Below, piece after piece: positions 6,701-53,316 of a stretch of DNA of 64,000 nucleotides; positions within the stretch are counted from its first letter, which is position 1; every line of letters starts with the position of its first letter. The notes beneath the pieces were generated by a model that was given only the letters and a program-made list of their open reading frames with translations, was not told the origin of the DNA and made no database searches. The translations under genes were made by a program, and so were the position numbers. Origin of the DNA: an uncultured Planctomycetota bacterium (GTDB lineage: Bacteria; Planctomycetota; Planctomycetia; Isosphaerales; Isosphaeraceae); assembly GCA_963845755.1 (NCBI GenBank), contig CAWJTV010000020.1:288001-352000 (forward strand), in the 5' to 3' direction.

Positions 6701-8579
6701 GCCGCCGATGAGGCTCACCGCCGACGCCGTCACGCCGTAGGTCCAGCTACCATTGCCGACCGAGTCGTCGATGGTTAGTCCGGTCGTGCCGCCCGCCCCG
6801 GTCGTCAGCGTGACGTCGCCGTAGGCGTCGGCCCGGGGGCCGAAATCGACGGAGTTCCCCGTCCCCGCGCCCATGGCCAGGGCCATCGCGTTGGTCGCGG
6901 TTGGCGTGCCTGTGACATCGACGGTGTTCGAGCCGGCGTCGGCGGCATCGAAGGTCAAGCCGGAGAGGGTTGCCCCGCCGTAGGTGAACACCGGCGCGGT
7001 GTTAATGGTGAGGGTGGAGCTGGCTACGGCGACGGTCTGGCCGGTCGTATCGTCCGAGTCGTCGATCGTCAGTCCGGTGGTGCCCGTGACCGTCACGTCC
7101 CCCAGGTTGCTGGCGGCGTGGGAGGCGTCGCCGAGATTCACCGCGTTGCTCGTCGAGCCGCCCATGGCCACCGAGGTGGTGGCCCCGGTGGGCGTTCCTG
7201 TCACCAACACCGTGTCGGCTCCGGAGCCGAACGCCGCCGTCAGCGAGCTCAGGTTCGCGTAATTGATCGCCGCCGGCGAGGTCCCGCTGAACTGCGTGGC
7301 GGTGAGGGTCGAGGTGCTGGAGCTGGCGTCGGCCGAATCGTCGATCGCCAGGGCGGTCCAGCCTCCGACGTTGTCGAGGCTGACAATCCCCGAGATGCCG
7401 CTGAGCAGGCCGACGTCGCCGATGTTGACGATATCGCTGCCGCCCTGACCGTGGATCGTGAGGGGATTACTTGTGGTGGTCCCCTGTGCATCGACCGTAT
7501 CGCCGCCCGTGCCGGTGTTCAGGGTCGTGGGGCCGGGCGTGCCGGTCACGATGAACGTGTTGCCCCCCGAACCGCCGCTGATGGTCAGCGACCCGGGGCC
7601 GGAGAAGTTCACCGCGGCCGGGGCCAGGCCCGCCGAGATCCCACTCGAACTGATGGTGGCGGTGGTGGCGGTGGTGTCGGCCGAGTCGTCGATCGCCACG
7701 GTCGTCGACGCGCTCGTGTTCGCGACGGTGACGGCCGCCAGGATCCCCTGGGCACTGCCGGCGTTGCCGACGTTGACGGCCTCGGCCCCTGACCCCTGGA
7801 CGCTCAGCGGCGCCCCTGCGGTCGTGGAGTGGACATCGACGGTGTCGCCGGTGCTATTCCCCTGGATCGTGGTCGACGTTTCGGTGCCGTCGACGGTAAA
7901 GGTGTCCGCACCCGTCCCCGCAAAGAGCGACAGGGCTGATAACGTCGCATTGGTGAGGTCGATCGAGGCCGGCGTGATGCCGGTCACGGACGTGCTCGTG
8001 ACGCTGACATTCCGCCCGGTGGCGTCGTTCTGGTCATCGACCGCGGCGGTCGAAGTTCCCACGGTCGAACCGATCGTAACGGTCCCGTTGATCGCCTGGC
8101 TGGTGCCGAAGCCAATCTGGAATAAGTCGCTGCCCCCGGTCGAGTCGTGGAGGGTGGTGGGATTGTTGTTGGAGATCAGGATCAGGGAGCTGTCGCCCCC
8201 ATGCATGTCGAAGTCCAGCGAGGTCGTGTTCGTGGTCGTGATGGTGTTCGTGCCGTTGCCGGTCACGATGCCGGTGCCGTTATTGGTGACGTTGATCACG
8301 TCAGCGAGGTCGGTGATCGTATAGACGCCGCTCGTGTAGGAGACGTCCACCGTGGTCGGCGTATCGGCCACGAAGGCGAAGGCGTCGCTCGCGTCGATGG
8401 TCACCGCCGCGGCCAGGAGGGTCCTCTCTTCGAGGGCATCGATCAGGAGGCGAGGCTCGACCGCGCGTTCGACGCCTTGCGTCGCGGGCGACCGGCTTGG
8501 TCCACGGCTGGCGAAGACTTCTGGACATGTCTCGTCGCGTCCCCAAGAGCCGGCCGTGGTTGCCAAAGGTCTCCGACAT
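758..8579 (-). CDS. Giant (~2600 aa) secreted repeat protein/adhesin: planctomycete extracellular-domain motif, about 11-12 ~100-aa beta-rich repeats, 4 PKD/Ig-like domains and a bacterial Ig domain; probable frameshift near the N-terminus
   Basis: RLLIDALEERTLLA motif; repeated LTIDDS.D…VTGTP…NLGDA; four Y.A.IDWGDG-type motifs; SDSGISDSDGITNVTTPTFVG. The Arg-rich leader (ATG 8579/8528, MSRSLRQ…RRRTRGR) lies in another frame. Confidence 0.85.
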
Positions 8580-10183: not shown

Positions 10184-10981
10184 TTACGGATACCAACTGG
10201 GGTTGGTGAGGATCACTCCGCCGGGATACATGCCCAGGTAGGCGTCGGGCTTGAGCACGGACTTGGCGTGGCCATCGAGATAGAGGACGTTCGAGCTGCC
10301 GTGCCGATTCCAGGGGATCCATTTGTCGAGCGTGACGGTGCCGAGCCAGATGTCGTAGTCGTCCTGCCTCGGATCAGTGGCCGCGACCGGGTCGTTGATA
10401 TTGGCGTCCATGACCGCGCCGTCACGCTCGTTCATGCAGACGAAATTCGACGTTCCGATGTCATACTGGAAACGGGGAAACGTCCAGCGGCCATAGCGGA
10501 CGGTCTTGTGGCTGAGCTGCGAGTTCAGCAGGTAGCTCGTCCGGTTGGTGATGCCATCGATTAGCCCGGTCGAGGGGTCGATATAAGGCTGAACGACCGA
10601 AATGTCGGACATGCAGCGGAAGATTTTCTCATCGGCAATCTGGGTTCCGCCTTTGGCGATCGCGTCGTTGGCGAAGGTCGGGTTGACATAGGGCATGATC
10701 TTGTCTTCCCAATAGATCTCCGCGAACGACTCGGCGTTGTGTACCTCGGAGAGGCTGTCGGCGTTGAACGGGTGATGGAGGAAGAACTGCCCGTTCCAAT
10801 CGTCGAAGTATTGCATGATGCCCAGGCCGATCTGATGCAGATGGCTCTGGCAATCCATGCGGCGGGCCGCCTCGCGTGCGCCTTGCACGGCGGGCAGCAA
10901 GAGCGCGACCAAGACCGAGATGACGGCGATCACCACCAGCAACTCAATCAGGGTGAATCCCGATCGGATTCGATGATTCAT
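10184..10981 (-). CDS. DUF1559 / prepilin-type N-terminal cleavage-methylation protein (divergent subtype)
   Basis: [35 protein letters not shown]-terminal [13 protein letters not shown] (H-X9-DG-like). Confidence 0.92.
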
Positions 10982-11696
10982 GGAGTCTAACTCTCTCGAG
11001 AAGGGTTGGCGGCGCCGCGTGTTACGAACGGTCAAAAGATACTACCCGTGCGACGGGTTCGCAAGAGGGTGACCCGAATGCGGGCCGCAGAGACAGTGCG
11101 TGATGGCTGCGATGCCGATTGATCGAACGCAATGTCGGCGTTTGTGGGAGCATTGCTCGCATGATCCTCCCGGAGTAGCGTCGGGCTATTCACATGCGCG
11201 AACGACGAGGCGGCAATCTATTCAAGCGACTGCGCCCTCCCGGCCTCGCGGGTTCAACTTTTTTCGGGGGCACGGCGGTGTGCGGGGCCTTCTTGCTTCG
11301 CCGACAGCGTGAAGCCGGTGATAGGGGACAGGCCGAGAAAGCTGTTTTTGGGCATCAATGAAGTGAACGCGGTCGACCTGAAAACCTCGGCCGGGAATCG
11401 GGAGACGGGCTGCTCGCCGGCCTTCCCACAAGTCTGAGTTGGCTCGTCCCCTCACGAGCGGTCCCTGCAAACGGCCGAATTCGTACGTTCGCGGATACCG
11501 GCGACTTCTCGCTCGCCCGTCGGGCGCCTGGCCGCGAGTTCTCGGCCCCGTTACGGCTGAAATCCGCCGACGAAAACCACCCTCTGGCGGAGGCTGTCTC
11601 GGCGCGTTATGATCCCCGGCTGTCTCGGTAGCACGATTTTCAGAATCGTATTATCGGGCCGAGTTGCTCTCGAATGTCCACCTATGGGAGCGTTTT

Positions 11697-12731
11697 ATGA
11701 GACATCGACACGGCTTCACACTGATCGAACTGCTGGTGGTGATTGCCATCATTGCCGTGCTCATCGCCTTGCTGTTGCCGGCGGTCCAGGCGGCCCGCGA
11801 GGCGGCCCGCCGCATCCAGTGCACCAACAACCTCAAGCAGATCGGCCTCGCCTTGCACAACTATCACAGCGCCCTGGGCTCCTTCCCGCCGGGCGGGATG
11901 GTGGCCCCGCTGACCAACTGGTGGGTCGCGCAGGGCCTGACCTGGCCCGGCCACTTCCGTTACTCGACCCCCGTCATGATCATGCCGTTCATGGAGCAGA
12001 CCACCGGCTTCAACGCCATGAACTTCCTGATCCCGTTGTACGACCTCAACGGCGACGACATGCCCCAGAACACCACCGTCTACTCCATGCAGGTGAACGC
12101 GTTCCTCTGCCCGAGCGACGTGCGCAATTCAATCGAGATCGAATTCGAGATGCCGTGCAACTACGCCGCGAACTCGGGCAACGGATTGCCGGGCGGCTTC
12201 AGCCTCCCGGCCTCGTACGGAACGCCCAACGGGCCGTTCTACTCCAACTCGGGGACGACGATGGCCAACATGATCGATGGCTCGAGCAACACGGCGGCCT
12301 TCGGCGAGAGCATCATCGGCACGAATTCGAATATCCCCCCGTCGCCGGGCGCGCCGAACCCCCAGGAGATCGTGGTCCAACTGCCCTCGGGCATCAACAC
12401 GTTCGCCGATACGTTCACGTACATCCCCCTGGTCGCGTCCGATTGCCTCGCCTCGACGAACTACCGCTGGGACCGCCAGACGAACTGGATCGACGCGGAC
12501 TACCGGCACACGCTCTACGATCATTACCTGACCCCGAACAGCACGATGTATGACTGCCTTCGCGGGCCGATGCACGGCTGGCGGACGGCGCGGAGCCGCC
12601 ACCCGGGCGGGGTGAACATCCTCTTCGTCGATGGCAGCGTCCACTTCATGAAGAACTCGATCAACCTCGTGGCCTGGCAGGGCATTGCCACCGTCGCGGG
12701 CGGCGAGGTCATCAGCTCGGACTCCTACTAA
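11697..12731 (+). CDS. DUF1559 prepilin-type protein
   Basis: [73 protein letters not shown]; ends [10 protein letters not shown]. Confidence 0.96.
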   Translation: MRHRHGFTLIELLVVIAIIAVLIALLLPAVQAAREAARRIQCTNNLKQIGLALHNYHSALGSFPPGGMVAPLTNWWVAQGLTWPGHFRYSTPVMIMPFMEQTTGFNAMNFLIPLYDLNGDDMPQNTTVYSMQVNAFLCPSDVRNSIEIEFEMPCNYAANSGNGLPGGFSLPASYGTPNGPFYSNSGTTMANMIDGSSNTAAFGESIIGTNSNIPPSPGAPNPQEIVVQLPSGINTFADTFTYIPLVASDCLASTNYRWDRQTNWIDADYRHTLYDHYLTPNSTMYDCLRGPMHGWRTARSRHPGGVNILFVDGSVHFMKNSINLVAWQGIATVAGGEVISSDSY

Positions 12732-12749
12732 GTGAAAGGGGCAAGACCG

Positions 12750-13863
12750 ATGCGCAGGACCAAGGTTCTCATGCTGGCGGTGGCCGCGGCGCTGCTGCGC
12801 GGACGTGGCGAGTGCTCACGAGCTCTGGTTTCACCCGGGCGCCGGAGGCCAGTCCTCCTCGGTGCGATTATCCTTCGGCGACTCGCCCGACCTCGGCGAG
12901 GCGGAACGCGTCGCGGAGATCGCCCACACGAAGGTCTGGGCCGACGGGCAACCGCTGGACGTCGAGCGTCTGCCGGATGGCCTCGAGGCTCGTCTGGGGG
13001 ATCGTCGCCCCGCCGTGATCAGCGCGTTCGCCGACCGCGGCATCGTCAACTACATGGGCGACTCGTTCATCATCTACCTGGCGGCCTATTCCCAGACGCA
13101 CGCGATCGAGGCCAATCCGGCCCGGAAGCTGGGCCTCGGCGACGATCAGGTCCGGCTCCTGTTGATCGCCAAGGGGGACGGGCCGCCGGTGGTGCAGGCC
13201 CTGTGGCGGGGGAAGCCCGCGGCGAACGCAGCCGTGAAGCTCTTTCACGGCCGCGAAACGCCCACCGAGCTGCGGACGGATGCCCGCGGCGAGATCCCGT
13301 GCCCGGATCTGAGAGAAGGCCCATGGTCGCTGCTCGTCGACGTCAGGGACAAGACGCCGGGCCAGCGAGACGGTCGGGATTACACACACGTCCGCTACAA
13401 GGCCACGCTGGCGATCGGCGCGGAAGCGGCCTTCGCCCCGGCCGTCGCCGCCTGCCTGGCCCGGGTCAAGGAGATCCACGGCGCGACCGGTCCCTGGGCG
13501 GTCGCCGGCTATCGGATTGGCGAGCGTGCGCTCAAGGAGCTGGGGCTTCCCCGGCAGAGCCATGACCTGGACGTGGTCCACCGATGCCCGGCCGAGGTGC
13601 AGTATTCCTGCGTCGCCGACGGCGTCCAGGCGGCGACCGGGGCCAGCCCCGGCAAGCTGAACCTGCACATCGAGCAAGCCACCCGCGAGGATCTCCGCAC
13701 CGTGATCCGCAACAAGAAGTCCGGGCGTACCCTGACGTTCACCCTCAAGCTGGAGTTCGCCCATTCGATCACAGACCTGCCGTTCGATCGGCTCGAAGCC
13801 GAAGGGCGGCGGGTCGCCGCGCTGGCCGATGACGTCATCTTCCGGATCGCCGAATCAAAGTGA
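12750..13863 (+). CDS. Secreted DUF4198-like + FmdE-domain protein (frameshift in signal peptide near 12800)
   Basis: MRRTKVLMLAVAAALL signal, then ASA-HELWF in another frame; LWRGKPAANAAV…TDARGEI (DUF4198-like); HGATGPWAVAGYRIG…C…SCVADGVQAATGASPGKLNL (FmdE-like). Confidence 0.75.
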
Positions 13864-13892
13864 GGGACGGACTTTCAGCCGGGAGGAGGCCG

Positions 13893-14357
13893 ATGCGTAC
13901 ATGCCGGAGGCGGCCATTGTCGCGGGGCCGCATTGTTGTTACGTCCTTGGCGAGCTGGGCCGTGTTGTCCCTGCTCGGCCTGGCCGGTTGTGGCGGCCCC
14001 GGCCCTTATACGGGCTCGCTCTATCCGGTCAAGGGTCAGGTGCTGCTGGCCGATGGCACGCCCCTCAATGGCGGCACGGTCCGATTCATCCCGACGCGGG
14101 GCGGACTGCCTGCATCGGGCACAATCGCAGCAGACGGTACGTTTTCGCTGAAGTCGAAGAGCCGCGACGGGGCCGCCCCGGGCGAGTACAAGGTCCGGAT
14201 CGAGCCGAGTGCGGAGTTGCTCGTGAAGAAAGGGAGAACGGCCCCGAAGCTGCCCTTCGCCTCGAAATATCGCGAGTACGACGGCAACACCGGTCTGACG
14301 GCCACGATCAACGCCGGGGAGACGCAGCTCGAGCCATTCCGGCTCGAGGCCAAGTGA
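13893..14357 (+). CDS. Planctomycete lipoprotein, carboxypeptidase-regulatory-like fold (typical DUF1559 companion)
   Basis: LAGC lipobox; PVKGQV…DGTPL…GTVRFIP…DGTFSL…GAAPGEYKVRI. Confidence 0.85.
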   Translation: MRTCRRRPLSRGRIVVTSLASWAVLSLLGLAGCGGPGPYTGSLYPVKGQVLLADGTPLNGGTVRFIPTRGGLPASGTIAADGTFSLKSKSRDGAAPGEYKVRIEPSAELLVKKGRTAPKLPFASKYREYDGNTGLTATINAGETQLEPFRLEAK

Positions 14358-14925
14358 CCCTCCACTGGCCTCCGGGAATTTGTCCCTGCACACTCCCGAT
14401 GCCGTGCTTGATCGTGAGATAGACGGCGAAGATCATCATCCGCAGGATCGTAAACTGGACATGGGGCACCTGCATCGCCGGGTGCTCTTGGCAAGGTTCA
14501 TCTCGACCCGCCTCCCACAGTCTAACGTGCAGGTAAGCCCTTACGCCCAAGCCTTATTCCGGTTTTCTGCTCCGATGCGACTCACGGCCAATGACCGGCC
14601 AGATGTGCGCCTGGACCCACGGTCCTGCACCACGAGACGGCCGCGTGGCACGTCGCCGCGCGGATCGCGAGGTCGGCGGTTCGGACGGTTTCCACAGGGC
14701 CCACATCGATACCGCTCTCCCCTCGACTGCTGGCAAAATCACCGGTTCGGAGGCCACAACATCCGAGTCCCGCCGTTGTCGTCAAGTCGGGTGTCGCCGT
14801 AAAATTATTCAAGGTTTTCGAAACCAGGCGGTGGATTGACAGCACAATTCTCATGTCGGATCATGAATCTAGCCCGATCTCCGGGCTCGGAATGATATGA
14901 CCTGCCCTCGGGGAATCGACTGCGA

Positions 14926-15399
14926 ATGCGTCGCCGCTCCCATCCATCCCGCACGAATGACATCGTCCGCCGGTTGCTGCCGGCGGTCGTGCTCTTCTGC
15001 GGCCTGGGAGTGGAGGGCAAGGCGGCCGAGATTTCGGTCTCTTCCGCCGGCGCGTTCGACGGCGATCACACCCAGCACTGTAGTTGTCGCGATTGCCGGA
15101 AGGGGTCCTGCTGCTGCGGCCCGCGCGGGCCGCAGACGAAAGGTGGTCGCACTAGACTACGGACCGAGCCGGTTCGGAATGGCGACGGTCCCTGCTTGAG
15201 AGCCGCCCCCTGCGGCGATTCGGGGTTGCCGGGTGCGCCGGTCCTCGGGCCGACCGGCAAGGTGGCATTCCACACGGCACAGAACTGTGTGGTCCCCTTC
15301 GCGACAGGCCACCTGCTCCCGCCGGACCGTCGTTGCGTTCTCCCATCCCGACGAGCCTCTCTTCTCGACGAGCCCCCGGAACACCTCGCCCTCGCCTGA
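14926..15399 (+). CDS. Small Cys-rich exported/leader protein (DUF2946-like architecture)
   Basis: N-terminal hydrophobic stretch, [15 protein letters not shown] cluster, PC…PC, C-terminal LDEPP; TTGACA upstream at ~14836. Confidence 0.65.
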
Positions 15400-15574
15400 T
15401 CCCAGGCCATTGCCATCGGCGTATCTCGAGCCCCGCCCGTGCGGTCGTTGTGTGCGCGCGGGACAAGGCACCGTCCGTTGCGTGATATCGCTGCGGTCCC
15501 CGATCTCCGCGGCCCTTGGGTCGTCGGCTTCACGTGGGATTGCGCCGAGCCTTCTCATTCCGGGAGTTCATCCA

Positions 15575-16582
15575 ATGCATCGTCGTCGAGCCTTCACGCT
15601 GATCGAATTGCTGGTGGTCATCGCGATCATCGCGGTGCTGATCGCCTTGCTGCTACCCGCCGTCCAGGCCGCCCGCGAGGCGGCCCGGCGCTCCCAGTGC
15701 ACCAACAACCTCAAGCAGATCGGACTCGCCCTCCACAACTACGAGGGAGTCTGGAACACGCTCCCCGCCGGACGTTACGGTTACCCTTACCTCTGGTCGT
15801 CGCTGGCCTCGCTGCTGTCCTACATCGAGGCAGCGAACATGTACAACGCGATCAACTTCTCCTTCGCCTCGGAGACCGCTCAACTCCCATATCCGGTCAA
15901 TTCCACCGTGGAGTCGGCGGCGATCGCGGTGTTCCTCTGTCCGAGCGACGGGCAGATGCGGGTGGACCCGACGAACTGGGGCGGGACGAATTATGTCTCG
16001 AATTCCGGGACGGGCACGCTCAATAACGGCAATTTCAACGTCGTCTCCGGGGCGCCCTTGCCCGACGGACCGTTCTACAACACCAGCGCCGTGCGGTTCG
16101 CCGCGATTACCGACGGTCTGAGCGGCACGGCGGGGTTCAGCGAGACGATCCTGGGCAACAATATCAATACCTCGCCCGGCAGCTCCCCGCCCTCGAACCC
16201 GAAGCGGCAATTCGCCCTGTTCAATACCTCTGAGATCCTGCTGACGTTTTCGCCGTCTTACTTCGTGCTGCCGAGCATAACAATCCCTCCCTGCGCGATT
16301 CCTGACCAGTGGTCAGGAGACCGGGGCCGCGAATGGTCGCGCGGCAGCTTCATCATGACGTCCTATAACCATTTCTACACGCCGAACAGTAAATTCCCGG
16401 ACTGCACCGACGCCGGCCGCAACGCCGCCGTGATCGGCCCGCGCAGCTTCCATCCCGGAGGAGTGAACGTCTTGCACCTCGACGGGCACGTGCAGTTTCT
16501 CAAGGACAGCGTCAATATCATCACCTTCCGGGCAATCTCGACCCGAGCGGGCGGCGAGGTCATCTCGTCGGACTCCTACTGA
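15575..16582 (+). CDS. DUF1559 prepilin-type protein
   Basis: [14 protein letters not shown]…[37 protein letters not shown]. Confidence 0.96.
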
Positions 16583-16608
16583 TCGAATCCAAATCCTGGA
16601 GATTCATC

Positions 16609-17990
16609 ATGAGCGAGTACGACCGTCCTTCCGCGATGAGATCCTGGCCCGACTATCGGGCCGTCTGGCGATGGCACTTCTATGCGGGGTTGTTCTGCAT
16701 CCCGTTCGTCATCGTGCTCTCGATCAGCGGCTCGATCTACCTCTTCAAGACGGAGATCGAATCATGGATCGATCGCCCTTATGACCGGCTCGAGGTCACG
16801 AGGTATCCCGCCACGGCCGCCGATCAGGTCCGCGCCGCACTGGCTGCCGTGCCGGGTTCGACCCTGAACGCCTACGAGTTGCCGCAGGCCGACGATTCAG
16901 CAGTCCGCGTGATCGTGGACAGGGATGGTGAGGCGATCCGGGTGTACCTGCATCCGCAGAGCCTGGACGTCTTGAACACGGTCGCGGAGAACGATCGCTT
17001 CATGCGCATCCTGTTCCGCCTCCACGGCGAACTGCTTCTCGGCAATCGTGGCTCGGCGTTGGTGGAGCTGGCGGCCTCGTGGACGATCATCATGATCCTC
17101 ACCGGCCTGTACCTCTGGTGGCCGCGAGGGGCGATCGGTTTGCGTGGCGTGGTGTTTCCACGGCTCGGGTCCAGTTCGCGGGTGTTCTGGCGGGACATCC
17201 ACGCCGTCACCGGCGTCTGGATCTCCGCGTGGGTCCTCTTCATGCTCTTCAGCGGCCTGCCCTGGGCGAAGTTCTGGGGCGACTACTTGAAGACCGTCCG
17301 TCGGCTCACCGGCATGGCGGTCGCCCGTCAGGATTGGACGAACGGAGCCGCCTCAGCCGTGAGAACGCGAACAGCTCGTGGATCCGGAGAGTCGCACCAT
17401 GCAACCGGCCGATGGTCAGGCCAGGGGCGTGGCACGAGGAGTATTCCGAGCGACCTCACCGCCGTGGACCGAATCGTCGCAACTGTCCGCCCGCTAGGGC
17501 TGGACCCGCCGGTGGTCATCGAGCCTCCCGCCACGGGCTCCAACGACTGGGCCGCGAAGTCGATGACCCCCAACCGCCCGCGCCGGGTCGACCTCGTTGT
17601 AGACGGTAAGACCGGGGTCATCAAGGATCGCAAGGATTTCGCGGACCGGCCCTGGATCGACAGAGTCGTCGGCACCGGGGTCGCCGCTCACGAGGGCGCC
17701 TCTTCGGTTGGCCCAATCAACTCCTCGGCCTCGTCGCTGCAATCGGGCTGGTCCTTCTGAGTATCAGCTCGGTGGTCCTGTGGTGGCGCCGTCGTGAGTC
17801 CGGTGTCCTCGGCGCTCCCCAGCCGCTGGCGGCTCCCCGGTTCTCGGTCAGCCTTTTGACGCTGGTGGTGTTCTTGGGAATCTATCTCCCGTTGTTCGGT
17901 GCGTCACTCGTCCTTGTGTTGCTGCTGGAGGCGACCGTCTTGCGCCGGATCCCGCGGATACGCGAATGGCTGGGACTTTCAAGCCCTTGA
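16609..17990 (+). CDS. PepSY-associated TM helix domain protein (frameshift ~17697)
   Basis: VWRWHFYAGLF, RLHGELLLG, TGLYLWWPR, WRDIHAVTG, SGLPW, AHEG, then LFGWPNQLLG…LWWRRR in the next frame. Confidence 0.9.
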
Positions 17991-18066
17991 TACGATTCGT
18001 GGGGGCTTGTTGCGATGACGTCCGGTGAGCTGTCCGCACGACCGGATTCCGAGGCCCGGTGAATGA

Positions 18067-18264
18067 GAGCCCGTCCTGCCCGCTCCGATCACCGATTACC
18101 AACTCGCGCTTCCTGGCATTCGCCACGTGAAGGCGGCCACCTCCGTCGCGGGCGTCGTGGGGACCCTCGTTGTCTTCGGGGTCGCCTGGGGATTCGCAGG
18201 GGTATTCTCTCGGCGGTCGGCGGGGACTTCGGGCATCGCCGTCAGTGACGATTCCGGATCATGA
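18067..18264 (+). pseudogene. C-terminal remnant of a CbiM/CbiN-type PDGLE-domain protein (Co/Ni ECF transporter component)
   Basis: Frame 1 reads EPVLPAPITDYQLALPGIRHVKAATSVAGVVGTLVVFGVAWGFAGVFSRR, preceded by an in-frame stop and lacking the N-terminal part. Confidence 0.55.
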
Positions 18265-18455
18265 GGCAGGAGGCGGCGGGGGTGCTGTCTCTGAATTTCC
18301 TCGTGGAAAGATTGACATATGTCGGACGGACGCCGTAGGCTCGTATACGGTTTCCGTTCGCCCGCCGCACGGGACGGGGTGTCAACTCCAACCCGAGCGA
18401 TCGGGTCCAGGGCCCCCCGGACAGCATCTGCGTCGTCGCATAAGAGGGACCTCTT

Positions 18456-19493
18456 ATGTTGAAGACCGGAACGCATCGCGGCTTTACGCTCATCGAGCTG
18501 CTGGTGGTGATCGCGATTATCGCCCTGCTGATCGCCCTGCTGCTACCGGCGGTTCAGGCGGCGCGCGAGGCCGCCCGCCGCATCCAGTGCACCAACAACT
18601 TGAAGCAGATCGGCCTGGCCTTGCATAACTATGAGACGGCCGCCGGGGCGCTACCCATGACGATGTCGTTGCTGGGGGCCGGCAACACGGTCTACTACGA
18701 CACCGGCTGGAGCGCCCAGGCCCGGCTCTTGCCCTACATGGAGGGGACCTCGTTGTTCAACGCGGCGAACCTCAGCGTCTTCAAGGAGGACCCCACCAAT
18801 TCCACGGTTATCTCGTTGACGGTGAACGCGTTCATCTGCCCGAGCGAGATCAAGCCGCAGGTTTCCTCGCACGATTATGGCCTCTCGGGTGTGATCAATT
18901 ACGGGGTGTGCGGGGGCGACTGGTTCGTCTGGGGTGGGTTCGGCGGGCCGTATAATCGCCAGGCGTTCGGCCCTAACCGGAGCCTGCGGCTGGCGGCGAT
19001 CACTGACGGGTTGAGCCAGACGTTGTTCGCCGCCGAGGTGAAGGCGTATCAGACCTCGTCGAACTGCCGCTTCACCACGCTGCCATCGGTCAACAACCCG
19101 AACAACATCCCGAGCCCGTACGCCGACCCGTTTCAGGTGGCGCCGGAATACGACAACGGGGTGTGCGTCACCGAGAATCAGGCGGAGTTCCACACCGAGT
19201 GGTCCGACGGGCACGTGCATGCGGCGGGGTTCACAACGGCCTGGCCTCCGAACAAGGCAATCATCGGCCGGTCGTTCTATCCGGGCATGGACCTGGACCT
19301 CAACGGCAAGAACGAGGAGAACGGCGGGCCGACCTTCTCGGCGATCAATGCCCGCAGTTATCACCCCGCCGGCGTCAACACCCTGCTGGGCGATGGCAGC
19401 GTGCGGTTCGTCAAGAGTACCATCGACGGGATGGTCTGGCGGGCCATGGGGACGGTTGCCGGCAGCGAAGTGGTCTCCTCAGATGCGTACTGA
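18456..19493 (+). CDS. DUF1559 prepilin-type protein
   Basis: [14 protein letters not shown]…[39 protein letters not shown]. Confidence 0.96.
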   Translation: MLKTGTHRGFTLIELLVVIAIIALLIALLLPAVQAAREAARRIQCTNNLKQIGLALHNYETAAGALPMTMSLLGAGNTVYYDTGWSAQARLLPYMEGTSLFNAANLSVFKEDPTNSTVISLTVNAFICPSEIKPQVSSHDYGLSGVINYGVCGGDWFVWGGFGGPYNRQAFGPNRSLRLAAITDGLSQTLFAAEVKAYQTSSNCRFTTLPSVNNPNNIPSPYADPFQVAPEYDNGVCVTENQAEFHTEWSDGHVHAAGFTTAWPPNKAIIGRSFYPGMDLDLNGKNEENGGPTFSAINARSYHPAGVNTLLGDGSVRFVKSTIDGMVWRAMGTVAGSEVVSSDAY

Positions 19494-19515
19494 TCTCGAG
19501 GCGGGAGGTGGTTCG

Positions 19516-19677
19516 ATGGGGCGTACTCTCATTCTTTTCACCCTGCCGGTACTGCTAGGTGCCGGTTCTCAACCGACTCAGGCCCCCGACGGACCGGAGG
19601 ATAAGCGTTCGGCTCCAATCCTCGTGCGTACCTTTCCACTCGAGGCGGAAGTGCGAGAATATCGCTTCCCAGAATAA
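19516..19677 (+). CDS. Small signal-peptide-bearing ORF (53 aa), possibly truncated
   Basis: GGGAGG RBS; MGRTLILFTLPVLLGAG hydrophobic start; immediately follows the DUF1559 gene. Confidence 0.35.
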   Translation: MGRTLILFTLPVLLGAGSQPTQAPDGPEDKRSAPILVRTFPLEAEVREYRFPE

Positions 19678-20231
19678 ACATGATCGAACAGAGTCATGCT
19701 GTGACTCTGAAGACTGGGCCTCCTCTTGCTTGCGTCGATCCGACGACACCAGCGTGGGCCACATCCAGGGCGCGCGAGGAACCGACAGGGAGCCTCTCAA
19801 ACTGGCCCATGTCCAACAGCCAGGGACGGAAGTGATAAACCCGGCATGGTGGTTCCTCGCTCGATTGAAACGATGAACACGATCTACGCCTGCATGGCAC
19901 TTCGGTGGAGCGAGACAACGAAGAAGACGGTTTTGCACATCAGGATGGGAAGAGACTCAGTCAGGAAACACTGGTTGGTGGCGCCGGCCTGACGATCGAA
20001 CCTCGCTCTGATTTCTCGATCTGTGCCAGCCTCCCCGGGTGCTCCATAGCTCATCGATGGCGGGGATCCACACCTCTCGACAAGACGTATCTCGTTTCTT
20101 CATTAACAAACAATTACCCCAATTTAGGCCAAGCTGGCCTCGTCAACCGCGGGATTCCGACGATAATGCCCCCGGCCCCGAAAGGATTCGGTCGCACCTC
20201 AATTCGCCAGAATGCTGGAAGAGGTCGTGTG

Positions 20232-20627
20232 ATGAGAGTGGATTCAACGGCACTCCGAATCGGTCGTCACTTCCTCCTGATCGCCCTGGCGATACAGGGG
20301 TTCACCCCGGATTTCCGTGATCTCGCATCCCGCTGGCTGATCAAACTGCTCACGTGCAACTCAACCGCGTTCACGATGGACGTCGGATCCTCACGCCATC
20401 ATGGTGAGAATCATCGCGAAGGGCCGGATCACGTGTGCTCGCCTGCGAGCGTCGATGCAAGCTTGCGCACTCGGCTCGACAACGGCTCTCGCCCATTCGC
20501 GGCATTCACGCCGCTGAAACCCTGCGGGGGATGGGTTCCCTTGGTTCACGTTTTCTCGCGCCGCCTCGGCATCGCCACGCGAGAACGCCACGACCTGACC
20601 CGGTCTCTCTGCCGCTTCGTCTGCTGA
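20232..20627 (+). CDS. Hypothetical 131-aa protein ending LCRFVC (paralog of 24510..24908)
   Basis: Shares ALAIQ..TPD.RD..S, D.VC.PAS and LCRxxC-stop with the second copy. Confidence 0.7.
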   Translation: MRVDSTALRIGRHFLLIALAIQGFTPDFRDLASRWLIKLLTCNSTAFTMDVGSSRHHGENHREGPDHVCSPASVDASLRTRLDNGSRPFAAFTPLKPCGGWVPLVHVFSRRLGIATRERHDLTRSLCRFVC

Positions 20628-20892
20628 GATCCCGACTCCAGACCTCGGGGCGACCCACATCCACGCCGGCACGGACCCGAGACCGGGAGCGCCGTGAACC
20701 GATGCGTCGCGAAGCCGGATCGTCGCCGGAGGGATCGCGAAATCGGCCGACTTCGGTCGAGCGGGCTCGGGCCGCCGTGCCCCGAGCGATCGTTCCCCCG
20801 CGCGACCATGTGCGCCACCCGTCGTGACCGAGAAGACGATCTTTCCACCGGCCGAACAATATAAATAAGAATATTTATTGGAAAATTTGATT

Positions 20893-22322
20893 ATGCCGAT
20901 TGATATCGATCGTGGTCGGGGCGAGGCGGCGGCATCGGTGCGGCGCGGGGACGGCCTTGGATCGGGTCGCCGCCGGCGATCGGTTCCTCATCGCCGGTAC
21001 CTGCCGGTTTCTCGGACGATCTCGACCGGGCGTCCGGGATTGTATCCCGGTGAACCGGAGAACTGCCGGCGCCGGCTGCGCGAGTTCCTCGTGATCATGG
21101 CCCAGCTCGGGCTGATGCTGGCCGTCTTCGACGCCTACCGGCTCGAGACCCGATCGTTCCGGATCCTCGTCCTCCTCACGATCGCGACGCTGCCGGTCCA
21201 CTACCTGGCGACCTATCGCTGGAAGAAACCGCTATTCGTGGCCATCTCGATCCTGGGAATGGTCCTCGTCAATGGCCTGTCCACGTCGGGCGGCATCGTG
21301 GCAGTCTCGGCGGTGCTCCTGGCGCTCGCCGCGGCGCCGATCGCCTGGTGGATTCGCGTCGGATTGATCGCCGCTCTGGCCATGTCCCTGGCCGTGATCC
21401 GGTCGCGGGCCGGTTCCGCGCCGAGGCGATCGCGACGGGGGTCATCCCGGTCGTCGCGACGATGTTCATGTTCCGGATGATGGTTTATCTCTACGAGCGA
21501 AAGCATGCCCAAGGCCGCGAGCCCCTCGTCGATACACTCGGTTACTTCTTCCTCCTGCCCAATTATGTCTTCCCGCATTTCCCCGTGGTCGATTATCGGA
21601 CGTTCCAGCGCGGTTATTTCGCGCACGGCATCCACGAGATCCAGAGGGAGGGCCTGGCGATGATGTCGCGGGGGACGACACATCTGCTTCTCTATCGTTT
21701 GATCGACCGCCTGTTGCTGATTTCGCCCGATGCGGTGCACGACCCCCTGAGCCTCGCGGGCTACCTGGCCTGCAATTACTTGCTGTATCTCCGGGTGTCG
21801 GGCCAGTTTCATATCGCCTGCGGCATGCTCCACCTGTTCGGCTTCCGGCTTCCCGAGACCCACCACCACTTCCTGCTGGCGACCGGTTTCACGGACTACT
21901 GGCGACGAATTAACATCTACTGGAAGGACTTCATGGTGCGGCTCGTGTTCAACCCGGTGGTTTTCCGCCTCAAGCGGCGACCCCAACCCGTGGCGCTGGC
22001 GGTGGCGACAGCGGTGGTGTTCGTGGTCACCTGGCTCCTCCACGCCTACCAATCGTTCTGGCTGCGGGGCACCTGGGGCTTCAGCGCGCCCGACGCCCTG
22101 TTCTGGGGCATCCTGGGCTTCCTGGTGCTGATCAACGTCCAGCTCGACGCGCGGCGGGGTGCGCGGCGAGTCGGGGGGTCTTCACGGTCGCCGTTGTGGT
22201 CGGCGAAACGCGCGGCTCGGATCGCCGGCACGTTCACGACGATCGCCTTGCTTTGGTCGCTCTGGTCAAGCCCGAACGTCGGGGCCTGGGTGGATATGAT
22301 GCGCCGGGGACTTGGGATCTGA
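20893..22322 (+). CDS. MBOAT-family O-acyltransferase (AlgI/DltB-like), frameshift ~21420
   Basis: Multi-TM; GQFHIACGMLHLFGFRLPETH…ATGFTDYWRRINIYWKDF; TWLLHAYQ (catalytic His). Confidence 0.88.
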
Positions 22323-22443
22323 GTTGGTGGCGAGGCGTTCGGAAATCCCCCCGCCGAGGGACCGACTGGCGTTTCTGTCGGAGCGGCGGACCATTGGCGC
22401 TCATCGCCGTCACCCTATCACTTCGGTCGATGGAGTACGAACC

Positions 22444-23577
22444 ATGTCTCATACGTCGGCGACGGCCCTGCGATTGCTCGTGACCGTGGCGATGCTGGGC
22501 TGGCGCTGTGTGCCGCGCGAATGTGCCCCGCACGCGGTGGATCGGGTGCGATGGGCGCTCGGCTGTGACGAGATCGAGAATCTCGACCGCTTGCTGAGCC
22601 AATCCGAGCCCGATCGGATGGATCAGGGCTATTACAACCAACTCCTCGACACCGGCCTGGAGGCCGGCCTGTCGCCGCCGATCTGCAAGCGCGTCCCGGA
22701 GTTGCGTGAGGTCGTGCTGAGATCGGATCTCTCGATCGTGCGAGCCGACGGGACGACATGGAGCACCAATGAGTTGGGGATGCGCGATCGGCCGTATGCG
22801 GCGTCCAAGCCATCGGGCACGTTCCGAATGGCGATGGCCGGGGACTCGATTGGCGTCGGGCTAGGCGTCGGCGACGGCCGGGGTTTCGAGCCGGCGCTCG
22901 AACGCTGGCTCGACGAGCACTCGCGCCGGCACGGCGGACCGACGGTCGAGATCCTGAATCTCGCCCTGCCCGGCCGCAGCCCCGGCCAGCGCTGGGATCA
23001 CTTCCAGAAAGTCGGCTGGGCGATGGAGCCCGACCTCATCCTGTTCGAGGCGACCGCCGCGGATGTCGGCTGGGACCAGCGCCGGCTCGCGGACCTGCTG
23101 CCCCGCGGGATCGGCTGGGACTCCACGCTCTACGGCGAGGTCTTGAAGCGTTCGGGCATCCGGCCGGGCGCGACGAGCGAGCAATACGCGCGGGCGCTGT
23201 GGCCGTATCGCTGGGAACTGGTCGCGGCGGTCTACCGCTCCGTCGCCGCCGACTGCCGGTCTCGCGGCGTGCCCTGCCTCTGGGTCTTGATCCCCCGGGT
23301 CGGTCGCGTTGTGGGGCCGGCCGAGCACCGGCGACTCCTCGACCTGGCCCGGGCCGCGGGTTTCGCGGCGGTCGTGGACATTTCGGATTCCTTCGACGGG
23401 TTCGATCCGGCCGATCTGGTGATCCACCCCAGCGACTTCCACCCCAACGCCGAGGGCCATGCCATCCTGGCCCGCCGACTCGCCGATGCCCTTTGGCCGC
23501 AACCTGTGCTGGGCGGGCTCCGGGGTCGCGATTCGAGCGAGGATGCGTCGCTTCAGGTGGGGGGCAATCTCCGATGA
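22444..23577 (+). CDS. SGNH/GDSL hydrolase-like protein (O-acetylation partner)
   Basis: TNELGMRD, FRMAMAGDSIGVG, EILNLALPG, DFHPNAEGH. Confidence 0.85.
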   Translation: MSHTSATALRLLVTVAMLGWRCVPRECAPHAVDRVRWALGCDEIENLDRLLSQSEPDRMDQGYYNQLLDTGLEAGLSPPICKRVPELREVVLRSDLSIVRADGTTWSTNELGMRDRPYAASKPSGTFRMAMAGDSIGVGLGVGDGRGFEPALERWLDEHSRRHGGPTVEILNLALPGRSPGQRWDHFQKVGWAMEPDLILFEATAADVGWDQRRLADLLPRGIGWDSTLYGEVLKRSGIRPGATSEQYARALWPYRWELVAAVYRSVAADCRSRGVPCLWVLIPRVGRVVGPAEHRRLLDLARAAGFAAVVDISDSFDGFDPADLVIHPSDFHPNAEGHAILARRLADALWPQPVLGGLRGRDSSEDASLQVGGNLR

Positions 23578-23726
23578 ACGAGGTTCGGCGCGGGATTGCT
23601 GAGTGCCCGTTCGCCGGACGCTTTCAATCTCCGGGTTTGGCCCGGAAGGTACCTGGCGGCGAGTCTCGGCGAGTGAGGCGGGCCGGTGTGCAGGTCCCCG
23701 GACAGCCGAATCCAGGACGCGCCGGT

Positions 23727-23984
23727 TCAGCCTCCTCGCCTGGGACCGCGAACTTTGCCGGAGCGTCCGTAGGTGAACAAGGCCGTTAGACCGATGCCAG
23801 CGAGCGGCACGACCACCCAGAGCAGGACGGATCGCCAGAACCCTGCCACGTCCTTGCCCAGAAGCCTCATGATGGCATTGGGGACGACGACGACCATGCC
23901 GCCGAGCGCGATCATCGCCCCGAAGATGAGCATGACGAAACAGCCGATGGCTTCCCGCGAGTCGTGCTGCGTCACCTTCGGCAT
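23727..23984 (-). CDS. Small two-TM membrane protein
   Basis: 85 aa with two hydrophobic helices; GAGG upstream of ATG. Confidence 0.6.
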   Translation of the reverse strand: MPKVTQHDSREAIGCFVMLIFGAMIALGGMVVVVPNAIMRLLGKDVAGFWRSVLLWVVVPLAGIGLTALFTYGRSGKVRGPRRGG

Positions 23985-24509
23985 CGCAAGACCTCATCTC
24001 TGAGCCGACTCGACCGGAGTGGCGATCGCACCGGGCCGGACCGCGACGATTCGTGATGTCACGCCCGTCGGGCCAGGGGGTACGTGCACCGACCCAGTGG
24101 CTGGCATGGATCGTCAACCACTCATCCCGGCGGCATTGTTCGGAGGATTCATACGTTGAGAATCGACCGTAGTCCAGCTCAAATTATTAGAGAATAATAT
24201 TTTTTACACTCTTTAATTTGTAGCCGACGAGTGACGTGTGGCAACCCCGCCTTCCGTGAGGGCAAGACCCGCGGTTTCGATCGATCGATCGACCGGCGGG
24301 AACGCGGCGGCCCGGGCAGGCCGGTGCACCGTCTCGGGGCCGATCGCCGCACCGGCGGAGGCGCCTGATCGTCCGGCTCCCAACCGATCGAAAGTCGCGT
24401 GTAAGGGGTCTGGTTCAGCCCGCCTGCGTCCCGTCAGGGAAGCCGGGACGACTCGGCCGCGGTATGGGAACGCTGGGGGTGGCTCGTGAGTGGCCGGAGG
24501 CGAGATTGG

Positions 24510-24908
24510 TCAGCAGGTGAGGCGGCAGAGGAGGAAGATCAACTCTCCGGTGCGGGCGATACCGCCGAAGGGTCGCGACGAGCGCAGGCAGCCGGGAGAC
24601 GGGGGACAGCCGGATGGCTGTGTCGCGTTCGCATTGTGACCCGTCGAGCCGTTGGCCGATCGTCGCAGGACAATCTGCGGTCCGGCCGAGGCGGGTGCGC
24701 AGACCTCATCGGCCTTCTCGTCCTGCGAGTCCTCTCCCGGTGGGACGGCGGCGTCTGTCGGCGGAAGTTCGTCCGCCACAAGCGATTGCAGGATCCGCGA
24801 GATCGAATTTGACGTGAAGTCACGAGAGTCGGGGGTGATCGCCTGGATCGCCAGGGCGACCAGGGCGAATCCGAAACAGCGAGTACGCAGCCGGAACCCC
24901 TGTAGCAT
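24510..24908 (-). CDS. Hypothetical 132-aa protein ending LCRLTC (paralog of 20232..20627)
   Basis: ALAIQAITPDSRDFTS; DEVCAPAS; LCRLTC-stop. Confidence 0.7.
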   Translation of the reverse strand: MLQGFRLRTRCFGFALVALAIQAITPDSRDFTSNSISRILQSLVADELPPTDAAVPPGEDSQDEKADEVCAPASAGPQIVLRRSANGSTGHNANATQPSGCPPSPGCLRSSRPFGGIARTGELIFLLCRLTC

Positions 24909-25102
24909 TAAGACCTTCCGTCACGCTCGAGACCGACGATCCGCAATCCTGACATCACGCGTATCGTCAGGATCATCGACGCGAATCGACCCGCGACTAA
25001 ACCGAAATCGGTGGACTCCGTCCTTTTCGCGAACTCTCCCTCCCGCCGGTTTGCATGAGTCCAACATCGTTCGTCGTGGGCTCACATTCGGGGCCGTCGG
25101 GG

Positions 25103-26293
25103 TCACTGGTCACGGTAGGGCTTTTTCTCCCCGTAGAGCTTAAACCTCGCTACGCCCTCGGAGCGGTCGTCGGCGTTCGGTTCGTGGTTGTTGGCCTCGG
25201 CCTGCCATCTCGCGGCCGAGACGAAGTCGCCGGCCTCGGCATGGGCCGCGGCGAGAGCTGAGAGGCATGAGGCATCCTTCCATTCCGTCAGCTCGCAGGC
25301 CCTGGTGCCCGCCTTCACGGCATTCTTGCCATCGCGGAATCGCTCGACGGGGCAGGTGGCCCGGATCCAGGCGAGGCGTTCGTACGGGATGGCCTCCTTG
25401 GAGTCGAGCTGAATCGCAAGGTCAAGGTCGGCGACGGCTTTGGCGTACGCTTTCAAAGCCTGCCAGGCGCGGGCGCGTCGGGAGTAAGCCTCGGCGTTCT
25501 CGGGATCGAGCCGAATCACCATGTTGTAATCGACGATGGCTTTCCCGTTCTCCCTCTGTCCTTGCCAGTCCACGCCGCGCGCGAGGTAGGCGGGGATGCA
25601 GAGAGGATCCAGCCAGATGGCCTCGCTGTGATCCTCGACGGCCTTGTCGTAATCCTTCTTCATGGCCCGCGCCGCCCCCCGGCCGATATAGGCCAAGGTC
25701 AACCTGGGGTCGAGCCGGATCGCTTCACTGTAGTCGGTGATGGCCCCGTCCGCGTCGTGCAAGGCAAGACGGACGTCGCCTCGCCTGCGATGCAGGGGCG
25801 CATTCCGCGGATCGAGCCCAACGGCTCGGTCGTAGTCGCGGAGCGCGGCGTCGTAGGCTTTCTGGTCCTGCCGCACGACCGCCCTCATGGCGTGAGCGAA
25901 TCCGCTCCGAGGATCCGCTTTGACCAGTTCGTCGAAGAAGGCGACGGCCTTCTCGACGGGAACGACGTCCTCGGCGCTGGCCGAACCGCTCAGGCGCTGT
26001 CCTTCGGCCTGGAGCCAGAGTCGAGGACCATCGGCCCGCTCGACTCGATAGATCGCGATCGCCCTGCGGCTCGATTCGACCGGTCCATCGTCGTCCAGGA
26101 GAACAAAGGCACCATTCTTTGGGACGACGCGTTTGCCGACCCAGTCCTCGTCATCCCGAGCCGAGGCCCGAACGGGTGCGGCCAGGAGCAGGACGAGCAC
26201 CGCGGCAAGCAGAGCGACGGTGTCGGCCCGACGGCCGGCGAGTCCCATTCGCCCCCGGACGAGCCCGCCTGCCATCGCGTTGCTCGAGACCAT
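25103..26293 (-). CDS. Secreted tetratricopeptide-repeat protein
   Basis: Signal-like segment; repeated AI.DY.EAIRLDP TPRs; C-terminal LAWIRATCP…RDGK.AV…ACELT.W. Confidence 0.92.
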   Translation of the reverse strand: MVSSNAMAGGLVRGRMGLAGRRADTVALLAAVLVLLLAAPVRASARDDEDWVGKRVVPKNGAFVLLDDDGPVESSRRAIAIYRVERADGPRLWLQAEGQRLSGSASAEDVVPVEKAVAFFDELVKADPRSGFAHAMRAVVRQDQKAYDAALRDYDRAVGLDPRNAPLHRRRGDVRLALHDADGAITDYSEAIRLDPRLTLAYIGRGAARAMKKDYDKAVEDHSEAIWLDPLCIPAYLARGVDWQGQRENGKAIVDYNMVIRLDPENAEAYSRRARAWQALKAYAKAVADLDLAIQLDSKEAIPYERLAWIRATCPVERFRDGKNAVKAGTRACELTEWKDASCLSALAAAHAEAGDFVSAARWQAEANNHEPNADDRSEGVARFKLYGEKKPYRDQ

Positions 26294-30649: not shown

Positions 30650-30810
30650 TAACACTGCCACGGCCAAGGTGTCGTCGGCGGGTGCCCGGAGTCGGTTGGG
30701 CCCGATTCCCGGTTCGCACCTGCCCTCAAGCTGGCGATCCAAAGTTCCTCTTCGAGTTCCCGCGGTGCGGGTTGATCCCGCCCCCTCCGACGCACTCACG
30801 GAGCAAGGTC

Positions 30811-53100: not shown

Positions 53101-53316
53101 ACCCAGGACGGCAAGGTATACAACGGACTGATCCGCGGCGAGACGGCCGACGAGCTCATCCTGGCCACCGGCGTCAACCAGGAAGCGCGGATCGCCCGAC
53201 GCGAGATCGAGGAGATGCGGCCCAGCACCGTCTCCGTCATGCCCGCCGGACTCGACCAGCAATTGACTCCCCAGGAACTTGCCGACCTCGTCGCGTTCCT
53301 GAAAGCCTGCCGATGA
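50109..53316 (+). CDS. PVC-type membrane-bound dehydrogenase / heme-binding CxxCH protein with HEAT repeats, frameshift ~51805
   Basis: Beta-propeller (DTDGDGVAD, GPDGWIY), HEAT region, C-terminal GDVRRG…CFSCH…VGPDLT…SVMPAGL…DLVAFL. Confidence 0.9.

Follow-up and report, generated by a model that had tools for sequence, protein, structure and literature searches.

A cysteine-rich leader family with a di-proline tail precedes DUF1559 prepilin genes in Isosphaeraceae: a candidate metal-sensing translational switch

Exported leader peptides on which a paused ribosome frees the Shine-Dalgarno (SD) region of the next gene are known from the stem-loop mechanism of SecM, as told also in the preprint on CutF. 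The arrangement is documented for SecM-secA and for monitoring substrates (PMC10987492), and CutF-CutO of Rhodobacter capsulatus follows a similar scheme, in which a leader with a signal peptide and a Cys site, but no need of a RAPP motif, pauses the ribosome and opens a helix shielding the SD (PMC9973294; bioRxiv 10.1101/2025.02.05.636593). CruR (Bp2923, DUF2946/PF11162), the first gene product of the CruR-CrtA/BfrG-CrpH operon of Bordetella pertussis (PMC9426467; PMC13038864), works via Rho instead. Upstream open reading frames (uORFs) ending in RAPP or RGPP are also found ahead of DUF1559 genes, with 112 RAPP cases and a 6.5-fold enrichment in the source data, not the main text, of Fujiwara et al. 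2025 (PMC12992588). Here, a leader gene ahead of a DUF1559 prepilin gene is described from an uncultured planctomycete of the family Isosphaeraceae. The stretch analysed, called the window below, comprises 64,000 nucleotides (nt) of assembly GCA_963845755.1 (contig CAWJTV010000020.1, positions 288,001 to 352,000); the source genome (G000) has 14.3 Mb and is 87.9% complete. A sequence-only reading of the window had noticed a co-oriented trio of a leader, a DUF1559 gene and a PepSY-TM gene, which the reading frame coordinates and Pfam matches bear out (Table 1). It had also described a 157-residue leader with a hydrophobic N-terminus, a Cys cluster and an LDEPP tail, and these elements were located at a predicted helix of residues 9-28, at residues 51-64 and at residues 147-151. 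With a probability of roughly 0.55, we regard this leader as a metal-sensing translational switch of the CutF/SecM type for a metal-acquisition operon.

Table 1. Features of the leader locus; positions refer to the window.
Feature	Position	Strand	Remarks
sigma70-type promoter candidate	14836..14864	+	TTGACA, 17 nt, GATCAT; 10/12 matches
Cys-rich leader ORF	14926..15399	+	157 aa; unnamed family; predicted exported uORF; no match in Pfam or NCBIfam
Signal-peptide-like N-terminus	14926..15024	+	basic, hydrophobic, KAA; cleavage inferred by eye
Cys cluster C52-x-C54-x2-C57-x4-C62-C63-C64	15079..15117	+	within [14 protein letters not shown], residues 51-64
C90-x5-C96 motif	15193..15213	+	53 residues ahead of PP; candidate sensing site
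LDEPPE tail	15364..15381	+	candidate pause site; mRNA anti-SD strand is 15367-15381
Intergenic spacer	15400..15574	+	175 nt; recurrent hairpins 15394-15407 (over stop codon) and 15507-15527
DUF1559 Shine-Dalgarno region	15558..15572	+	contains GGGAG (15562-15566); PP codons 15367-15381 predicted to mask it (minimum-energy fold)
DUF1559 (SBP_bac_10) type IV prepilin-like protein	15575..16582	+	335 aa; N_methyl plus SBP_bac_10, E 6e-48
PepSY_TM membrane protein, predicted di-heme metal reductase	16609..17989	+	Pfam, E 1e-55; one-base frameshift near 17693 in assembly

Full-length homologs of the leader were found at 39-56% identity, giving 318 representatives at 50% clustering. Among 121 genomes from the window's family, 99 carried matches, often in several copies per genome, and the named records in which this leader occurs belong to Isosphaeraceae, Paludisphaera soli among them; the leader profile had no match in 250 other genomes sampled across the phylum, for which 15 candidates were scored per genome, so that absence is not proven. 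Across 76 members, C52, C54, C62, C63 and C64 of the Cys cluster, C96 of the Cx5C motif and P150 are invariant, while C57, C90 and P95 are kept in at least 90%. Because of the full-length homologs, the 318 representatives and the six invariant Cys plus P150, the family is real and under constraint beyond chance. The conservation of leader, Cys cluster and di-proline (PP) tail in relatives that the sequence-only reading had called for was thus found, and a second invariant motif, C90-x5-C96, as well as the structured 175-nt spacer, were not part of its description. All 127 intact leaders contain PP, in 96 of them with exactly six residues between PP and the stop, intactness being defined by a profile that reaches the tail, a rule favouring PP-bearing copies. 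The consensus of the tail is R-[LI]-[DE]-[RDEK]-P-P-[ER]. From the last Cys of the Cx5C motif to PP, 52-54 residues are counted in 111 of 118 intact leaders in which the motif was matched; the spacing from the first Cys cluster to PP varies from 73 to 106 residues.

The leader does not belong to DUF2946, the family of CruR. None of the 76 leader members matched DUF2946 at E<=1, with the same profile library picking up true DUF2946 proteins, RAPP or RGPP occurs in none of the 127 intact leaders, and hhalign of the leader with a DUF2946-like protein from its own genome gave a probability of 0.2%. In the ESM Atlas, the named clusters nearest the leader are DUF6769 and CzcI, which is a lead only. 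The literature searched, which did not extend to the lists of CutF-like proteins (PMC9973294 File S1) and one supplementary file of PMC12992588, does not describe the family. An AlphaFold model shows the helix 9-28 and is otherwise unstructured (predicted template modelling score, pTM, 0.22). Hydropathy of at least 1.8 in an 11-residue window ahead of the Cys cluster was detected in 125 of 128 leaders. Export by the twin-arginine (Tat) pathway was rejected by eye, the second Arg being frequently Trp. Leader homologs that were called as genes are mostly 150-165 residues or longer.

To define the gene order, 150 leader matches listed of 177 were used, corresponding to 143 places merged to 122 regions, 120 of which were retrieved. 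One weak region was left out and the copies of the source genome were read directly from the genome, resulting in 145 unique leader loci, 127 intact and 18 broken or cut. Genes were called by a codon model built for the survey, by which small genes may be missed; the leader itself has a weak codon bias and was not called. The first gene after the leader specifies a DUF1559 prepilin in 112 of the 145 loci, as a rule some 175 nt downstream, and PepSY in three, and 13 loci are without any co-oriented gene called. Since DUF1559 genes make up about 1% of the genes of the source genome (95-119 copies; gene total estimated from 14.3 Mb), this pairing is beyond chance. PepSY_TM was found in just 20 of the 145 operons, side by side with AhpC/Trx in 23, cytochrome c' in 11, BNR in 9, DJ-1/YHS in 9, Fe/Mn superoxide dismutase (SOD) in 8, cytochrome c-Trx in 7, DUF4198 in 6, Fe(III)-type solute-binding proteins in 3, FmdE in 2 and CbiM in 1. 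The fixed unit is therefore the leader plus DUF1559, and PepSY is one among several cargoes. Synteny of leader, DUF1559 and PepSY, as expected from the sequence-only reading, recurs for its first two members and is not unique to this genome, but extends to PepSY in a minority of loci.

In 106 of 128 leaders, a TTGAC box precedes the first Cys by 170-330 nt, and TTGACA is enriched about 15-fold. A search for operator motifs upstream of the 128 leaders yielded this -35 box alone, which fits control after transcription initiation. A Fur-like half-site that visual inspection had suggested in the window showed no enrichment upstream of leaders. Two further leader copies of the source genome precede DUF1559 genes, one on C43 (L001:8649-9209) with its tail lost to a frameshift and one on C9 (L155) with a 353-nt spacer containing a second TTGAC box.

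The spacer between leader and prepilin gene revealed a novel relationship, covariation of the PP codons with the SD region that follows. In 76 of 107 loci, the leader stop and the prepilin motif lie 172-215 nt apart. For the covariation analysis, 52 of these 76 spacers were aligned by plain MAFFT, 24 more divergent ones being omitted by eye, and the helix was taken from the fold of the window. Fifteen PP-SD pairs in one register comprised 76 compensatory cells compared to 36.7 after shuffling (0 of 500 shuffles), one position for example being AU in 20 and GC in 18 rows. The two spacer hairpins are 78-88% paired in the same alignment. The duplex of the 27-nt PP window with its own SD region had an energy of -13.58 kcal/mol versus -11.6 kcal/mol for permuted partners (0 of 10,000 permutations; n=101 distinct loci), and synonymous randomisation of the codons gave -11.76 kcal/mol, the observed value being reached in 0 of 100 cases (n=101). 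Adjusting for GC left the effect in place (-1.9), as did swapping partners inside a genome (38 of 60) and keeping a single locus for each genome (z about -6). Of the informative tree-disjoint pairs, 31 of 43 showed stronger pairing (sign test, p 0.005). Five control windows were not significant, the one directly upstream of the PP window being borderline (p 0.085). When the PP codons of the window copy were masked in silico, accessibility of its SD rose from 0.13 to 0.42. PP-SD pairing is probable from these data, although not proven, and the covariation points to a switch of the CutF kind, in which the stall frees the SD. A known riboswitch was rejected as an explanation, the Rfam scan of 11000-25500 giving no match at E<=5.

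The PepSY protein matched PF03929 with 190 bits, above the cut-off, and His23, His139, His198 and His361 are kept in 18-20 of 20 homologs, as expected of the heme ligands of FoxB/CrpH (PMC13038864). Its reading frame is shifted near 17693 in the assembly, the final 97 or so codons (17697-17989) lying in another frame. One extra base is present at the break in an independent contig that otherwise shows 0 mismatches over 242 nt (depth 3.3), the site is read through as HEG(R/Q)LFG or similar in 13 full-length homologs, and such breaks are many in the assembly, in which 19 of 95 DUF1559 copies have their starts cut off. The frameshift is therefore probably an assembly error, and the gene was treated as intact. 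Apparent frameshifts or fused frames are also seen in the unrelated window genes 30682-32887, 36086-37927 and 50109-53316, consistent with assembly indel errors.

A TonB-receptor barrel (PF00593) was not found in the source genome, at its 87.9% completeness. A genome scan with one PepSY of the family gave 14 loci, 13 of which were inspected. In the planctomycete loci among them, DUF1559 (one partial) or the leader is immediately upstream, whereas the acidobacterial PepSY, 62% identical to a family member, is preceded by a TonB receptor ending 5 nt upstream. Out of 275 records of plasmid relatives four were inspected, all proteobacterial, and in three the PepSY gene follows a TonB receptor gene, with SCO or PCuAC copper chaperones near two. 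An Acetobacter plasmid shows the order RGPP-tailed small gene, TonB receptor, PepSY, SCO; a Pseudoalteromonas plasmid has TonB receptor and PepSY beside PCuAC and SCO; and a Novosphingobium plasmid has DUF2946, TonB receptor, PepSY. The fourth relative is located after a two-component system, near a siderophore receptor gene. The relative in the DUF2946-TonB receptor-PepSY arrangement is 42% identical. For the receptors beside these PepSY relatives, the top-scoring models were those for PqqU, siderophores or heme, all under the cut-off. As PepSY relatives elsewhere follow TonB receptors, in one locus headed by DUF2946, it is supported that DUF1559 holds the TonB-receptor slot ahead of the same PepSY lineage. 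A literature search revealed no paper joining DUF1559 with TonB.

The DUF1559 protein itself matches N_methyl and PF07596 above the cut-off and has an H-X9-DG C-terminus. Its model (pTM 0.83) resembles type IV pilins and pseudopilins (PilA4 6xxd, EpsG, PulG) in the prepilin cleavage motif, a 50-residue alpha-1 helix and a C-terminal sheet, but differs from them by an insert of about 200 residues without structural match; the best fold matches to type IV pilins are weak (Z 4.7, the maximum obtained; root-mean-square deviation 3.8; 122 residues aligned). In a FastTree tree with midpoint root, the window protein falls in a clade of 13 leader-linked DUF1559 proteins, seven of them followed by PepSY (support 0.76), and leader-linked DUF1559s are spread over several clades among the other copies of the genome. 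Its position in the operon suggests that DUF1559 may capture a ligand. For Tuwongella, about 90 DUF1559 copies are reported (PMC8567305).

Taken together, these data suggest the following mechanism. The PP codons of the leader would pair with the SD of the prepilin gene and hide its ribosome-binding site. The leader would be exported during translation, its cysteines being read outside the membrane, and the ribosome would pause at the PP codons; the 53 residues to PP presumably place the Cx5C motif just beyond ribosome tunnel and translocon during the pause, if the tunnel dimensions we assume are right. The pause may be held under metal starvation and free the prepilin SD, switching on a likely copper-acquisition operon, until metal binding folds the chain and releases it. 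The prepilin, in the place of a TonB receptor and ahead of a predicted heme metal reductase, might capture a metal or its chelate at the surface with its insert domain. Confidence in the inferred steps falls in the order of leader export, PP pausing, SD release, metal signal, copper, and surface capture by DUF1559. Copper is the favoured metal and would take the larger share of the probability given above.

A number of observations weigh against this mechanism. RNAalifold predicted nearly no consensus helix (0 pairs from 52 spacers, 3 from 20), and the window region folds no better than shuffled sequences (z -0.17). Over the 101 loci, PP masking lifts mean SD accessibility just from 0.34 to 0.39, with 27 up and 13 down, a local hairpin being able to cover the SD again, and at least four PP-SD pairs form in only 42 of the 101 full folds. 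A nearest-relative control of the pairing was weak (58 versus 43), a per-column tree covariation test supported 1-3 pairs, too few for significance, and GGAG is by nature complementary to Pro codons (CCN). As for the pause, the Arg at -4 present in 112 leaders is Leu in the window copy, xPPx alone may cause a weak pause only, and the motif missing from the family, RAPP/RGPP, is the one for which strong arrest resistant to elongation factor P is documented (PMC12992588). Regarding metal acquisition, the cargo is mixed, nothing co-oriented follows the prepilin in 36 loci, SCO or PCuAC were not detected among 68 cluster representatives scanned, and the DUF1559 model had no match to solute-binding proteins, Foldseek giving none at E<=0.001, which does not exclude one.

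In a second explanation, the same stalling switch would respond to periplasmic thiol-disulfide status or export capacity. Disulfide folding of the 8-10 cysteines or pulling by Sec would release the pause, tuning pilin and redox genes. The redox-rich cargo listed above (AhpC/Trx, cytochrome c-Trx, SOD, cytochrome c', DJ-1) fits this, as do the even cysteine numbers that are common in the leaders (8 in 42 and 10 in 33 of 126) and a constant target that belongs to the Sec/pilin pathway. In addition, disulfides have been proposed to release CutF stalling (bioRxiv 2025.02.05.636593), and RAPP peptides are listed ahead of thioredoxin/DsbA genes, too (PMC12992588). However, the PepSY lineage elsewhere accompanies TonB receptors, SCO, PCuAC and DUF2946, the cargoes DUF4198, CbiM and solute-binding proteins are linked to metals, and AhpC/TSA genes, like PepSY, are cargo of copper cruR operons as well (PMC9426467). 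A redox or export signal appears rather unlikely.

Somewhat less probable still is control as in CruR, by which the paused ribosome would block Rho-dependent termination in the long spacer and PP-SD pairing would be secondary. The 175-nt spacer is closer to the 162 nt of cruR (PMC9426467) than to the spacers of under 100 nt reported for most CutF-like genes (PMC9973294), no intrinsic terminator was found in it, and base composition favours C over G both at the leader end (0.43 against 0.27) and over the initial 30 bases of the spacer (0.37 against 0.24), without a control set. On the other hand, covariation is specific to PP window and SD in one register, and the GC-rich hairpins in the rest of the spacer are unsuited to a rut site. 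The RNA evidence points to an SD switch as in CutF and SecM rather than to the Rho route, although both routes could coexist. A last alternative, in which the leader gene yields a stable protein that is secreted, resembles metallothionein or assists the pilus and shares a transcript with DUF1559, its tail being kept for protein function or translational coupling without regulated pausing, is improbable: two to three Cys groups resembling metal sites, the signal-like N-terminus, a weak match of one member to a plant metallothionein model (E 0.011) and the signal-peptide genes noted to flank DUF1559 genes frequently (PMC8567305) speak for it, but the leader is always first behind its own promoter, the Cys-PP, PP-stop and stop-ATG distances are fixed, no fold is predicted, codon bias is weak, and covariation with the neighbour's SD is at the level of mRNA.

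Compared to the CruR operon, the proposed metal-sensing switch shares an exported small uORF in first position, with an export signal judged by hydrophobicity, a Cys motif at fixed distance from a C-terminal di-proline, a long spacer and a downstream PepSY_TM protein with four conserved His. It differs by Cx5C plus a six-Cys cluster instead of CxxC, by a Cys-PP spacing of 53 residues, where CruR has a fixed 45 (PMC9426467) and the CruR pattern asks for CxxC 43-46 residues ahead of RAPP/RGPP, by R-L-D-x-PP instead of RAPP, by a DUF1559 prepilin replacing the TonB receptor, and by indications of SD masking. Of the planctomycete cruR/bfrG-like operon envisaged in the sequence-only reading, the CruR/CutF architecture and the prepilin in the TonB slot remain, while DUF2946, RAPP and PepSY as a regular cargo do not. 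The rules given for CutF-like proteins, PP within the last 15 residues, a same-strand neighbour at less than 1,000 nt and a Cys/His site, apply to the leader, apart from its 157 residues exceeding a limit of 150, which is a search filter and not a functional criterion (PMC9973294). For the Sec signal peptide cleaved by SPase I that the rules also name, hydropathy and the predicted helix are the indications in the leader. A helix shielding the SD within reach of a paused ribosome is shared with CutF, in the leader family by computation only, but here the PP codons would themselves serve as the anti-SD and close a loop of 175 nt with several hairpins, and a prepilin, probably with an uptake operon, is targeted, for which the sign of metal control may be opposite. 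The leader resembles the RAPP/RGPP uORFs in heading a DUF1559 gene with a C-terminal di-proline (PMC12992588); lacking their motif and having another Cys pattern, it would be missed in a motif-based list. From SecM it is distinguished by the arrest motif, a Cys-rich sensing region and a target outside the Sec/YidC machinery.

Other leaders are also found ahead of prepilin genes. A prepilin gene comes after the true planctomycete DUF2946 gene in 17 of 23 loci in the family and in 9 of 16 others, a pairing also contained in the source data of PMC12992588. The source genome contains one DUF2946-like gene, scoring just under the cut-off, a uORF on C11 (L153:2147-2503; CxxC-43-RAPP, E 3e-4) ahead of DUF1559 and a HEAT lipoprotein. 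The uORF is also ahead of a gene for a Tat-type Cys/His-rich helical protein without Pfam match, which we take to resemble copper storage proteins (Csp). Two genomes (L180 and L190) have DUF2946 ahead of an Flp-like pilin with a GQGLVEY motif and not of DUF1559. Planctomycetia outside Isosphaeraceae place a long form at the head of this PepSY-DUF1559 pair, a Cys-rich protein of 220-300 residues ending in PPPR (L210-L239; CGCxSAxxCWxxCCC ... CxG-48/49-PPPR) and unnamed in Pfam and NCBIfam. When 251 genomes of the class were sampled, 115 had the long form but none of the 62 Isosphaeraceae among them did, which mirrors the distribution of the short form. The long form precedes DUF1559 in 24 of 30 cases. 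Its PP-SD pairing beats permutation (41 of 5,000; n=22 loci), an earlier test on eight loci with uncertain starts having been negative, which speaks against the pairing. Short and long forms align only across the Cys cluster (probability 73%, 30 columns) and are likely homologous, although the similarity could be compositional. A third leader type on C28 of the source genome (L154:1613-1999; CAGGMC ... IERPPR) precedes DUF1559, followed by lipoproteins, a heavy-metal-binding adaptor and an RND pump. Another PP-tailed candidate, an ORF ending in PCSGLSCS ... PPERPPR (L156:18224-19234, minus strand), heads a cluster with four DUF1559 and AhpD/CMD-like proteins.

Within the window, two further DUF1559 prepilin genes are located at 18456-19493 (+) and 10184-11035 (-), four lying within 9.3 kb. 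Directly upstream of the leader, 11691-14357 (+) contains another DUF1559 prepilin, a DUF4198/FmdE fusion and a carboxypeptidase-regulatory-like lipoprotein; it may be a neighbouring Ni/Co-type unit, DUF4198 and FmdE also being leader cargo elsewhere. Two members of an unnamed small family without Pfam match are encoded at 19905-20627 (+) and 24510-24908 (-), with a hydrophobic ..LAIQ.ITPD.RD.. start, the end LC-R-(L/F)-x-C-stop and paralogs on C43 and C22. Downstream of the former lie a gene for a frameshifted membrane protein and one that is GDSL-like, and the family possibly constitutes another type of leader. The region 758-8566 (-) encodes a Thr/Gly/Ser-rich repeat protein of 2602 residues with a planctomycete-type N-terminal IDALEERTLL motif, by appearance a large surface protein.

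The kind of switch is already known, and the pairing of RAPP uORFs with DUF1559 is tabulated in a supplement of PMC12992588, which limits the surprise. The leader adds a candidate arrest motif beyond the RAPP class, and an anti-SD encoded in the same codons permits clean mutational tests. In a wider and quite tentative view, Planctomycetia with few or no TonB receptors might import trace metals via DUF1559 pilins gated independently by at least three unrelated or distant leader families (true DUF2946, short and long form). A metal chelate would be caught at the surface by the insert of 200 residues and handed to the PepSY reductase as the pilus retracts, the new non-RAPP motif R-L-D-x-P-P doubling as anti-SD across the folded 175-nt spacer. 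DUF1559 is among the largest uncharacterised planctomycete families, and through the conserved leader and the positional swap with TonB receptors one of its branches gains a concrete, testable role in metal acquisition; the swap also bears on how nutrients move across the outer membrane in planctomycetes.

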